DNA from: Polyangiales bacterium
Lineage (GTDB): Bacteria; Myxococcota_A; Polyangia; Polyangiales; CBDCBC01
Length of the DNA: 64,000 bases
Assembly: GCA_044224525.1 (NCBI GenBank)
Contig: JBGAKI010000004.1
Location: 20,820-84,819 of the forward strand
Direction of reading: 5' to 3'
This document shows positions 39,300 through 50,711 of the stretch, piece by piece. How positions within the stretch are numbered: the stretch's first letter is position 1; each line of letters opens with the position of its first letter. The position numbers and the translations under genes were made by a program. Under the pieces are notes generated by a model, which had not been told where the DNA came from, made no database searches, and saw only the letters and a list, made by a program, of their open reading frames with translations.

Positions 39300-39301
39300 A
39301 A

Positions 39302-39430
39302 CAAAGGGAGGTTGAGTTGAGCGAGTCCACGGGAGGTCAACCCCGCTCACTAAGCGCTACGCCTTCGGCTTCGCGAATCGTTCGCTACTGTTTAATCTCC
39401 CGAACACCCTCTAAACTAACCCTCCCTTTG
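39302..39430. other. Structured intergenic element A (candidate ncRNA or MITE-like repeat)
   Basis: Terminal inverted repeat CAAAGGGAGG...CCTCCCTTTG with internal hairpins; shares motifs with 40728-40850. Confidence 0.5.
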
Positions 39431-39458
39431 CTGTAAAGCAGCGAAAAGATAACCCGAG

Positions 39459-46297: not shown

Positions 46298-46363
46298 GGT
46301 GACACGCACTAAAGTGCATGTCACCGGACCCTGGTGGTGACATGCACTTTAGTGCGTGTCACC
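46298..46363. repeat. REP doublet (REPIN-like): two inverted 28-bp palindromes
   Basis: GGTGACACGCACTAAAGTGCATGTCACC (46298-46325), 10-bp spacer, then its exact reverse complement (46336-46363). Confidence 0.95.
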
Positions 46364-47792: not shown

Positions 47793-48506
47793 TTAGAGTG
47801 TGTCGACGATGTGTTCGTAGAGTCTTGCTAGACCGTTCTCAAGGGTCGGCATGAGCGCTTCGAGCGTTATATCGTCTTGGCAGAGCGCGGGGTCAAGTCT
47901 GCGCGTGAAACGCACAACGCGATCACGTGTCGATAACTCGATCATGTCGTTCAGCTTGTGCTCCAGTGCAGCGTCCGCTTGGCTACTGGTCGCCGAGAGT
48001 GACGTTATGATGGTGGTCGCATCGGCTGATCCAGAGCGCTTAAACCATTGAACCATCACAGCGAACTCTTGATAGCGCGAGACGCGAAACGGATAGGTCG
48101 GCGCGACACCCGGCAACATATCGGCCAAGACCTCGATGGGCCATTCATTAAGCAGCTTCTTTTGCGCGAGTAGCGTCAACGACATCGCGGGTGTGATAAG
48201 GTCATCGCCACCCATCGCTATAAGGCGCGACAACTGCACCTCGGTGAGATCGGCAACAGCGCTCGTCGACAAAATGGTGCATTCGAGCTTCTCAACGTCT
48301 TGACCGTTCTCTTTGGTCTTATAGCGGCGCTTTTGCAGCTCGTACCGTTTGTGAAGCTCGTCGACCTGCCAGTTGGCAGGCGTGTCGCTTTGCGCCTTGC
48401 GACACCCGCCCTGGTAGGCCGCTTCCAGCGCGCTGGTGGTCGCTTGAGGCGCGGCGTCGCAACCGCCCAAAAGCAGTAGAATACAGAGAATATGAGTTGA
48501 ACGCAT
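47793..48506 (-). CDS. Hypothetical lipoprotein
   Basis: Lipobox LGGC after a hydrophobic core; 237 aa. Confidence 0.7.
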   Translation of the reverse strand: MRSTHILCILLLLGGCDAAPQATTSALEAAYQGGCRKAQSDTPANWQVDELHKRYELQKRRYKTKENGQDVEKLECTILSTSAVADLTEVQLSRLIAMGGDDLITPAMSLTLLAQKKLLNEWPIEVLADMLPGVAPTYPFRVSRYQEFAVMVQWFKRSGSADATTIITSLSATSSQADAALEHKLNDMIELSTRDRVVRFTRRLDPALCQDDITLEALMPTLENGLARLYEHIVDTL

Positions 48507-48678
48507 AAGTACTTATATAAGCCAGCGCAAGCGGCGAATATCTAGCATGATTCTCCACTTATTCAAGCGAGTTATGCGCGGATCCTTGACCTTATCACCT
48601 TGCGTCACAAGACGTAACGAGGTGTTCGCGCACCGGATCGCGCACTTTATCGACGAGCTCGCTGGCGCCGCCTTCGTT

Positions 48679-48745
48679 GGTGACACGCACTAAAGTGCAT
48701 GTCACCCGGCGATTTTCGGTGACATGCACTTTAGTGCGTGTCACC
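48679..48745. repeat. REP doublet upstream of the RAYT gene
   Basis: Same 28-mer at 48679-48706 and its reverse complement at 48718-48745; 11-bp spacer. Confidence 0.95.
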
Positions 48746-48780
48746 CAACAACTTGGCCGAGTGGCGATCGATAAGTACGC

Positions 48781-49383
48781 ATGCCAAGAAGTGCGCGTAT
48801 CGTCGTACCACATCTGCCACATCACGTGATTCAAAGAGGCAATCGCCGTCAGACCACATTTTTTGGCCCCGATGATTACCGCGACTATCTGCGCCAGCTC
48901 GATCGATTCGCCCGCCGATACGACACCAAGATCTGGGCGTATTGTTTGATGCCCAACCACGTGCATCTGATTGTCGTGCCCTCAACGGTTGAGGGTCTTT
49001 CTAAAACAGTGGGCACGGCGCACTGGCACTATTCGAATCACATCAATCGGCGCGAACACTGGAGCGGCATGCTTTGGCAGGGGCGTTTTGGGTCGTTTCC
49101 CATGCACACCCGCTATCTTGTGGCAGCAACGCGCTATGTGCTGCTCAACCCTGTGCGCAGTGGCTTGGTGCGCGACCCGGCGGACTGGCCTTACTCGAGC
49201 TTGGGGGCACTGTTGGATGGTGCGCCCAATCCATACGTCGATTGTTCGGTGCTACACGAACTTGTCTCGGACTGGTCGGCGCTCGTCTATCAACCGCTCG
49301 ATGAGATGCTGCAGATGACCTTCAAAAAACACCAAGAAACGAACCTGCCACTGGGGTTGCCGAAGGGTGGACGCGCACTCTGA
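48781..49383 (+). mobile_element. REP-associated tyrosine transposase (RAYT/TnpA-REP, HuH Y1 superfamily)
   Basis: MPR..R, HHVIQRGN, YCLMPNHVHL (HuH), LWQGRF, RYVLLNPVRSGL (catalytic Tyr), WPYSS; flanked by palindromes. Confidence 0.93.
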
Positions 49384-49385
49384 CT

Positions 49386-49525
49386 GGTGACGCACTAAGG
49401 TGCATGTCACCAAAGGGTGCAAACCGTGAACGCCTCCTAAACGGTGACACGCACTAAAGTGCATGTCACCAAGGGTGCAAACGGTGACATGCACTTTAGT
49501 GCGTGTCACCAATGTGTGTGTCACC
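49386..49525. repeat. REP cluster downstream of the RAYT gene
   Basis: Degenerate copy 49386-49411, exact copy 49443-49470, reverse copy 49483-49510, extra half-site GTGTCACC ending 49525; linker AAGGGTGCAAAC occurs twice. Confidence 0.93.
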
Positions 49526-50711
49526 GCAACGTGAGGCGTAGCCAGTCGCGTTTGCCTGCCTTGATGACGAAAGGTTCGGGACGTGGGGTCAATTTAAGTG
49601 TGATGTCGCTGATTTTGGTGCCATCGATGCCGACGGCGCCCGCTTGAATGCGGCGGCGCGCTTCAGCGCGACTGGGCAAGAGATGCTCGCCGAGAATATT
49701 CACTAAAAGCGCCTCCCCTTCGAGGGTGATCTCTTTCATTTCGTCGGGGATTTCTTTTTTTGAGAACTGGTTGAGCCACGCTTCGCGCGCCTGCTTTGCG
49801 GCGCTTTCGTCGTGGAAGCGCGCTACGATTTCTTGCGCCAAGTCGAGTTTGGCATCGCGCGGGTTGGGCTGTGCCTTGGCTTCGCTCACGTCACGACGTG
49901 ATAAGAGCTCGTAATAACGCCACATCAGATCGTCCGAGATGCTCATTAGCTTGCCGAACTGCTCGCCGGGTGGCTCGTTGACGCCGACGTAGTTGTCGAG
50001 CGATTTGCTCATCTTGTCGCCAACCAGTTTACCGTTTTCAATGCGTGCGCTTAGGCCCTCAAGGATCGGCGTGGTCATTACAATTTGCGGCTTGAGACCC
50101 ATGTCACGCATCAGCTCGCGACCCATCAATAAGTTAAAAAGCTGATCGGTGCCGCCAAGCTCTACGTCGGGCTTGAGCACAACAGAATCGTAGGCCTGCA
50201 TGATCGGGTACCACAGTTCATGTAGCGCAATTGGCTGTTCGCCGCGCCAACGTTGCTTGAAGTCGTCGCGCTCGAGCATGCGTGCAAGCGTGAACCTACT
50301 CGCCAGACGAATGATGTCGTCGAGGTTAAGCTTAGCGAGCCACTCGCTGTTGTAACGCACCTCGGTGAGCTTAGGGTCTAAGATTTTCATGGCCTGCGCA
50401 TGATAGGTCTTGGCGGCTTCGACGATTTCTTGCTCGCTTAGCGCTGGGCGCGTGGCGTTGCGACCCGTCGGATCTCCGATGCGTGCCGTCATATCGCCCA
50501 CGACAAACACCACCCTGTGACCCTGGGCTTGAAAGTCACGCATCTTTTGCATCAAGACCGTGTGGCCGATATGCAAATCCGGACGCGTTGGGTCAAAGCC
50601 CGCCTTTATAAGCAGAGGCTTGCCGGCGTTCAGTAACTTAGTGAGCTCAGCCTCAACGTGAAAATCAACGGTGCCGCGCTTGAGCCGAGCGAGTGAATCA
50701 TCGCTCATCAT
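49521..50711 (-). CDS. tyrS: Tyrosine--tRNA ligase
   Basis: GFDPTRPDLHIGH, IGDPTGR, QAYD, GGTDQ, KMSKS, C-terminal S4 domain. Confidence 0.97.
   Translation of the reverse strand: MMSDDSLARLKRGTVDFHVEAELTKLLNAGKPLLIKAGFDPTRPDLHIGHTVLMQKMRDFQAQGHRVVFVVGDMTARIGDPTGRNATRPALSEQEIVEAAKTYHAQAMKILDPKLTEVRYNSEWLAKLNLDDIIRLASRFTLARMLERDDFKQRWRGEQPIALHELWYPIMQAYDSVVLKPDVELGGTDQLFNLLMGRELMRDMGLKPQIVMTTPILEGLSARIENGKLVGDKMSKSLDNYVGVNEPPGEQFGKLMSISDDLMWRYYELLSRRDVSEAKAQPNPRDAKLDLAQEIVARFHDESAAKQAREAWLNQFSKKEIPDEMKEITLEGEALLVNILGEHLLPSRAEARRRIQAGAVGIDGTKISDITLKLTPRPEPFVIKAGKRDWLRLTLR

Follow-up and report, generated by a model that had tools for sequence, protein, structure and literature searches.

Our analysis indicates that the locus at 48679..49525 is probably a TIRtron-type cassette, in which a single-copy TIRYT gene sits amid gene-less miniature derivatives of its own ends. 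The repeat that brackets the gene, the 28-mer GGTGACACGCACTAAAGTGCATGTCACC, can be read as the two ends of the element, left and right, with two bases between them, and would be a minimal gene-less derivative of it. Such an arrangement is already described as a class. This case differs from it by degree: a short repeat unit, a high copy number, a GGTG variant of the end, and a truncated gene.

Results

The window, that is, the whole stretch of 64,000 nucleotides analysed, contains an HUH/Y1 nuclease gene, putatively of the TIRYT / TnpAY1 subclass 2.1 type, at 48781..49383 on the plus strand (603 bp, 200 aa). Its neighbours, a 237-aa ORF of no known function and a tyrosyl-tRNA synthetase ORF, both lie on the minus strand. 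The 28-mer was found six times as an exact match in the window, compared with none in 100 shuffles, and these six copies form three inverted doublets (46298/46336, 48679/48718 and 49443/49483) with arms 10-12 nt apart. The four exact copies and one degenerate copy that the earlier note had seen around the gene were all recovered, together with an extra doublet and remnants. This extra doublet (46298-46325, plus; 46336-46363, minus; both exact) lies 2.3 kb upstream of the nuclease gene and stands before a glutamate-cysteine-ligase-like ORF. Its minus-strand copy overlaps the first listed GTG start of that ORF (46356), the true start of which is probably further downstream.

Directly upstream of the nuclease gene, an exact plus-strand copy at 48679..48706, for which the fold was computed, forms the outer member of a doublet with an exact inverted copy at 48718..48745 on the minus strand. 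The first base of the latter is 63 nt ahead of the nuclease ATG, close to where homologous loci have their upstream end repeat (mode 55 nt). The downstream side of the gene is a decaying repeat array. According to sequence reading and alignment, a linker fragment and a decayed 5' repeat half (49363..49379, plus) make up the last codons of the ORF, and the conserved C-terminus of the family stops just ahead of this remnant. A degenerate plus-strand copy of 26 nt (49386..49411), which has lost 2 nt and differs once in the loop, begins 2 nt past the stop codon. It is followed by the linker AAGGGTGCAAAC and a decayed repeat start, both found by repeat-family search (49413..49433, plus), and then by an exact inverted doublet, supported by its fold, with the same linker between its members (49443-49470, plus; 49483-49510, minus). 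The two uses of this linker at the locus bear out the reuse reported before. Finally, the repeat search identified a 12-nt 3'-end repeat fragment, GTGTGTGTCACC, at 49514..49525 (plus), overlapping the last codons of the minus-strand tyrosyl-tRNA synthetase ORF.

The 28-mer consists of two 13-nt end cores in inverted orientation and two joining bases; it starts with GGTGACAC and ends with the complement of GGTGACAT. The two cores differ at one position, which is the C/A mismatch. The first eight bases agree with GGGGWSAS at 7 of 8 positions and also fit GG[G/T]GACA[C/G]. As single-stranded DNA in plus orientation, the repeat folds into a stem of 7+4 bp interrupted by the open C/A pair (-9.1 kcal/mol, z -4.6), as had been proposed; the opposite strand has G-T at this place and folds with -11.0 kcal/mol. 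For a doublet, a single perfect 28-bp stem is possible (-35 kcal/mol). The GT[AG]G tetranucleotide was absent from the hairpin foot, since the repeat starts with GGTG, and no conserved base was detected outside the 28-mer (at most 0.18 bits per position in the 97 copies whose flanks were complete). By the terminology of Quentin et al. (2018), GGTG...CACC is a "double foot" hairpin with a GGTG foot. The earlier note had rightly found no GTAG/GGAG tetranucleotide outside the stem, and had called the family tag-less. We find that the 28-mer is not tag-less, because it begins and ends with the end motif; the tag lies inside the stem.

Rfam microRNA hairpin models gave sub-threshold scores for the region (20-39 bits against gathering cut-offs of 45-93) and were rejected as generic hairpin matches. 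Among metagenome contigs, the exact 28-mer was found in none and a degenerate form in two. These two contigs of one metagenome (L132:531-634 and L133:1501-1528) carry look-alike 28-nt hairpins with the same stem, the same mismatch place and other loops, in gaps between housekeeping genes of another organism; no Y1 gene was present within the 1.5 kb examined.

In the genome assembly (3.31 Mb, 146 contigs, 99% complete), 99 sites matched the 28-mer with up to 3 mismatches, and 75 of these were identical. The C/A pair was kept in 92 of the 99 copies and the TAAA loop in 90. The sites fell into 57 clusters (21 singles, 30 pairs and 6 triplets), so that the copies are mostly in pairs. This repeat is the source of the thirteen commonest 16-mers of the genome, each with 79-87 occurrences. 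Its copies strongly favour intergenic DNA: stop-to-stop frames of at least 600 nt cover 86% of the positions in the genome and only 20% of the sites. A crude gene model allowed 46 clusters to be placed in intergenic gaps, of which 27 were tandem (background 1353), 14 convergent (background 421) and 5 divergent (background 447). Four copies lie no more than 150 nt from contig ends, and the true copy number is therefore probably above 99. When 40 related genomes were searched, the 28-mer was found in none, and the reversed-pattern control also gave 0.

One copy on another contig (C88:7196-7223) lies inside a 638-aa frame at about residue 245, where it is read through as VTRTKVHVT and leaves the frame unbroken. 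The genome also holds a second abundant repeat family, seen in the window at about 39300-39450 (core 39374-39390, minus strand), with about 70 core matches genome-wide. Its conserved core of about 57 nt contains GTAG twice and stands between arms of about 30 nt that vary between copies yet remain complementary; some copies carry a 34-nt insert.

The nuclease carries NHVH (HVH at residues 60-62), WQ at 99-100 (LWQGRF), YVLLNP at 119-124 (Y119) and an SS pair at 139-140, in agreement with the subclass 2.1 signature NHVH / W[EQ] / Y[IV]xLNP with a proximal SS in Table 1 of PMC6006769. It matched the Pfam Y1_Tnp family (E 2e-12, 47.7 bits against a cut-off of 23). The best-scoring NCBIfam model was REP_Tyr_transpos (RAYT), yet its score remained under the cut-off (68.4 against 80 bits), and transpos_IS200 reached 16.8 bits against a cut-off of 55. 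A profile built from the protein and 21 relatives found E. coli TnpA-REP (4er8) at E 3.5e-9, compared with 7.7e-4 for the best IS200/IS605-type chain. The AlphaFold (AF2) model had a pLDDT of 89.8, and its best structural match was again 4er8 (E 2.5e-8), followed by the IS608 and ISDra2 transposases.

We then consider the phylogenetic placement. A tree of 47 rows was built from the query and its paralogue, 20 close relatives found in the database, 19 genes of related genomes, 5 IS200-type genes and E. coli RayT. Seven of eight IS200-type loci had been made into ORFs, L115 being omitted as a partial match, and L111 and L114 were dropped from the tree for odd N-termini in crude ORF calls. The IS200-type rows separated with an SH-aLRT of 97, E. 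coli RayT fell outside the other 41 class-2 rows, and the query was nested in a clade of close relatives, within the family flanked by end repeats. The class-2 features, namely the Y---NP motif, a low gene copy number and a flanking repeat abundant in intergenic DNA, are all present. The protein is thus class 2 and RAYT-type, not an IS200 transposase, as suggested before, and the gene is effectively single-copy. Its further placement as a TIRYT, equivalent to TnpAY1 subclass 2.1 and to RAYT Group 1, is probable on the basis of motifs and end repeat rather than of a joint tree.

Only two Y1_Tnp genes were found in the genome, and the query is the only one with an HUH motif. The other (contig C55:25751-26533; L002:1369-2151) encodes 260 aa with 35% identity to the query. 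In this paralogue YDVH replaces the HUH motif, so that the first histidine is missing, and YIDLHA replaces Y---NP. No 28-mer lies alongside it, and six tandem copies of a 9-bp unit follow. In the 47-row tree it groups with the related-genome genes.

At 200 aa, the ORF is shorter than those of all 80 relatives (201-263 aa; 78 of 80 at least 217 aa). After PLG (residues 190-192), where the alignment ends, the relatives run on for about 22-40 residues and the query for eight, which are encoded by repeat-array sequence. The conserved C-terminal extension (distal domain) of TIRYTs is missing; in 5 full-length relatives, no Pfam domain or HTH was found in this tail at E up to 1. All invariant columns of a 22-row alignment are kept in the query, including the HUH histidines, the tyrosine and the SS pair. 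In a tree of 78 family rows, for which 3 of 80 loci were dropped because of stops in ORF extraction, the query has the longest end branch (1.1, median 0.33). Of the gene described earlier as intact, the core is so. The word is doubtful for the gene as a whole, given the shortness of its ORF compared with all 80 relatives and the origin of its last codons in the repeats, and the loss of about 22-40 C-terminal residues may have crippled it.

Database searching returned 2117 relatives at E 0.001 or better, with a maximum identity of 56%, nearly all of about 220 aa. We surveyed the ends of 80 homologous loci, 44-52% identical and from many phyla. GG[G/T]GACA[C/G] was present upstream and directed at the gene in 45 of 80 loci, inverted downstream in 46 of 79, and on either side in 57 of 80, compared with a chance expectation of about 0.017 per 150 nt. 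It was most often placed 55 nt ahead of the start codon on the one side and over the stop codon on the other. Looser forms were visible in many of the loci without the strict motif, and relatives from the same order as the source genome showed the same end-repeat pattern. By its sequence, we identify this motif with the GGGGWSAS end repeat of TIRtrons. In most relatives, the end motif is not within a long hairpin. The repeats flanking the query start with GGTG and agree with GGGGWSAS at 7 of 8 positions, and they are whole palindromes rather than single ends.

Elements of decreasing size were observed in this family. Full cassettes in most relatives are about 0.8 kb. One relative, L086, has 17 miniature elements in its genome, each an inverted pair spaced by about 55-60 nt. 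That of L023, the nearest neighbour of the query in the family tree, holds 16 fused-end palindromes with arms of 19-25 nt and a centre of 5-8 nt, and two more distant relatives (L006 and L007) have short GGGGAC...GTCCCC palindromes beside the gene. This graded series, from the cassette of about 0.8 kb through about 78 bp and about 45 bp to 28 bp, supports reading the 28-mer as fused ends. Weak points of this reading are the T of the 28-mer in place of the G of the published motif, and a likeness to the ends of most relatives that is modest past base 8.

Several further observations were made on these ends. The L023-genome palindromes (L116-L131, genome G041) have identical arms, yet their 5-8-nt centres are all different, and two of them bracket the homologous gene. 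In the tree, loci of the GGTG type cluster, with 7 changes where shuffles give 11.4. We rejected a co-evolution of the protein with the G/T base, as the query is not among the clustered GGTG loci and the base is not tied to the nearest relatives. At the ends of loci L023-L102, stems of 4-7 bp flanking the core seem to covary (AATTAAG/CTTAATT, AAATA/TATTT, GAGTT/AACTC). With true partners, the mean best stem around the end core was 3.56; swapping the partners gave 3.22 (sd 0.09). As relatedness among the sequences inflates the statistic, we take this as no more than suggestive. It hints that single ends may be able to fold with the core in the loop.

We also examined how neighbouring copies relate to each other. 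The 41 adjacent pairs comprised 22 in '+-' orientation, 4 in '-+' and 15 direct. In the 22 inverted '+-' pairs, the linkers are 7-30 nt long (9-13 nt in 20), all different and without a common sequence. Since these linkers share nothing, the inverted pair is not a travelling unit. Identical linkers occurred in 3 triplets, and linker-like sequence was present again in the flank in further direct cases; the direct pairs and triplets look like tandem duplications of repeat plus linker. A private loop variant was common to both members in 3 of the 41 adjacent pairs, one of them inverted (expected 0.19; equalled in 7 of 20000 shuffles), which points to local copying in a few cases. In a search for target-site duplications, linker-flank matches occurred only at repeated tandem units, and there were no inverted matches.

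Part-copies of the repeat end were about 20-fold enriched beside full copies. In some places they make up tandem "stutter" arrays that include 3-9 bases of the flank (e.g. C134:48504-48538). Homologous loci have similar stutters, made of the outer flank and the bases with which the end repeat begins. The break points vary, so that they indicate no cleavage site. Part-copies with a period of about 9-13 nt, stacked outside the true end, were seen at L033, L035, L036, L041, L058, L075 and others.

The identity of 75 of 99 copies argues for a recent burst, and of the recent or ongoing activity suggested earlier the recent spread is thus upheld. The ongoing part was not: candidate joints over 46000-50800 in contigs of 4 sequencing runs (of 20, none recorded as RNA) were rejected as cross-mapping, with linkers from other repeat loci, and provide no evidence of excision, insertion or expression.

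Discussion

As described by Di Nocera, De Gregorio and Rocco (2013, PMC3733652), a TIRtron is a RAYT-like gene between inverted repeats with GGGGWSAS. The end repeats form moderately abundant dispersed families, some of them self-complementary, in dimers or clusters, and some overlap the 3' end of the gene. Our locus resembles this in having a tyrosine nuclease gene amid an end-repeat family, with dimers and a 3'-end overlap. It differs in that the repeat is only 28 bp, starts with GGTG and not GGGG, and is present in about 100 copies; in addition, the tail of the gene is gone, and the right end that it originally had seems to be lost as well. Among the systems compared, the query repeat is the shortest fused-end unit.

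According to Quentin et al. (2018, PMC6006769), subclass 2.1 is the same as the Group 1 that Bertels et al. (2017) defined, and for the most part coincides with the TIRYTs of Di Nocera et al. (2013). The query is like this group in its NHVH, WQ, Y[IV]xLNP and proximal SS, its low copy number and its wide, patchy distribution. These authors report that automatic and manual searches found no REP-like sequences near 2.1 genes. Their Table S1 lists one 2.1 protein with GGTG-footed hairpins, and GGTG feet and "double foot" forms occur there; part 1 of this table contains no GGTGACA, GGGGACA or complements of these. Flanking 16-mers average 12 in Group 1, and 57 and 140 in Groups 2-3, according to Bertels et al. 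(2017, PMC5581495). In contrast to the 12 of Group 1, the query has 79-87, and its copy number is near those of Groups 2-3. Because TIRYT, Group 1 and 2.1 are published, dispersed families of self-complementary end repeats included, the repeat is already catalogued with its RAYT class at class level, though not as this 28-mer; the earlier note had itself named such a catalogued repeat as a refutation of its reading.

With E. coli RayT (TnpA-REP) and its REP/BIME sequences and with the RAYT-REPIN system of Pseudomonas, the query shares a single-copy Y1 nuclease amid cognate intergenic hairpins, inverted doublets, a stem mismatch and the best structural match, 4er8. In contrast to these systems, the repeat has no GT[AG]G tetranucleotide outside the stem. 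Inverted pairs dominate as in REPINs, yet the doublet spacers are not conserved, so that there is no REPIN-like unit. With the IS200/IS605 TnpA proteins of IS608 and ISDra2, the query shares the HUH/Y1 fold and presumably the single-strand chemistry. That family is class 1, with Y---Q, many copies, subterminal hairpins and no inverted ends, and the query does not belong to it.

We propose the following course of events, which builds on the results for the protein family, the shared end motif and the number, distribution and identity of the copies. That the gene product acts on the repeat is conjectural, as are the discrimination of strands and the copying in place. Two ends of the element, left and right and 13 nt each, would have been joined into a 28-bp near-palindrome, which then came to occupy about 100 intergenic sites. 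The nuclease would recognise the end sequence on single-stranded DNA, where the hairpin may present it, and the C/A pair, being G-T on the other strand, could distinguish the two strands. The enzyme would cut through its tyrosine and rejoin, and the 28-mer would in this way be copied or moved. Pairs and triplets might subsequently expand locally, by tandem or inverted copying of the repeat and a few adjoining bases. This last step could be nick-primed.

Four other explanations must be weighed against this. The one closest to the earlier note, a REPtron of a new RAYT subclass in the style of E. coli and Pseudomonas, in which the hairpin is recognised through its C/A mismatch without guide or tag, seems to us rather improbable. 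The hairpin and its mismatch are real (92 of 99 copies), the flanks have no conserved base, and the two metagenome contigs with look-alike hairpins keep the stem and the mismatch place with other loops. However, the foot of the stem is the conserved end motif of the family, found at 57 of 80 loci, and as this motif lies mostly outside long hairpins in relatives, the family shares a sequence rather than a hairpin. The palindrome follows from the joined ends, and a hairpin-recognition rule of its own, as had been suggested, finds no support here. The subclass was moreover already described. The locus indeed does not fit the E. coli/Pseudomonas type, but the class to which it is assigned was named in 2013, 2017 and 2018. 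An ordinary IS200/IS605 insertion sequence shares the Pfam family with the query and is practically out of the question in view of Y---NP in place of Y---Q, the IS200 model score (16.8/55), the absence of identical gene copies and the separation in the tree.

It is unlikely, in our judgement, that the system is a fossil, in which repeat sequence replaced the 3' end of the gene and disabled it, leaving repeats that are relics of a burst and are altered only by host slippage or recombination. The short ORF with repeat-derived last codons and the long end branch agree with such a history. Stutter arrays and tandem units fit slippage, and no sigma-70-like promoter was found in a scan of 48450-49650. 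Against this, 200 codons are open, all invariant columns of the 22-row alignment are kept, the predicted model of the core folds with high confidence, and 75 of 99 copies are identical. A host-function element, in which selection would preserve the 28-mer for binding a protein, terminating transcription or stabilising mRNA ends, with the nuclease as a mere neighbour, is very improbable. The copies are intergenic, and their clusters are relatively frequent in convergent gaps (14) and scarce in divergent ones (5; n=46). However, the above scan also detected no T-run terminators, the repeat was found in 0 of 40 related genomes searched, and its ends agree with the end motif of this very gene family. 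Selection for a host function would also not hold all 28 bases, loop included.

Returning to the TIRtron-type reading, a more far-reaching version of it can be put forward, which we regard as doubtful. The locus would then catch a transposon with inverted ends in the act of becoming a REP population; the fused 28-bp hairpin would be the smallest complete substrate, and clusters would arise by nick-primed local copying in direct or inverted orientation, running over a few adjoining bases, instead of by cut-and-paste. If true, nick-primed copying would explain together the identical repeats with unrelated linkers, the arms and centres of the L023-genome palindromes, and the stutter arrays.

The TIRYT / subclass 2.1 proteins are the largest RAYT-like group, and no biochemical work on these enzymes was found in the literature searched. 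Because the repeat is very short, uniform and abundant beside one gene, a 28-nt oligonucleotide is a ready substrate for binding and cleavage. The graded elements of related genomes illustrate concretely how the ends of a transposon may give rise to REP-like hairpins.
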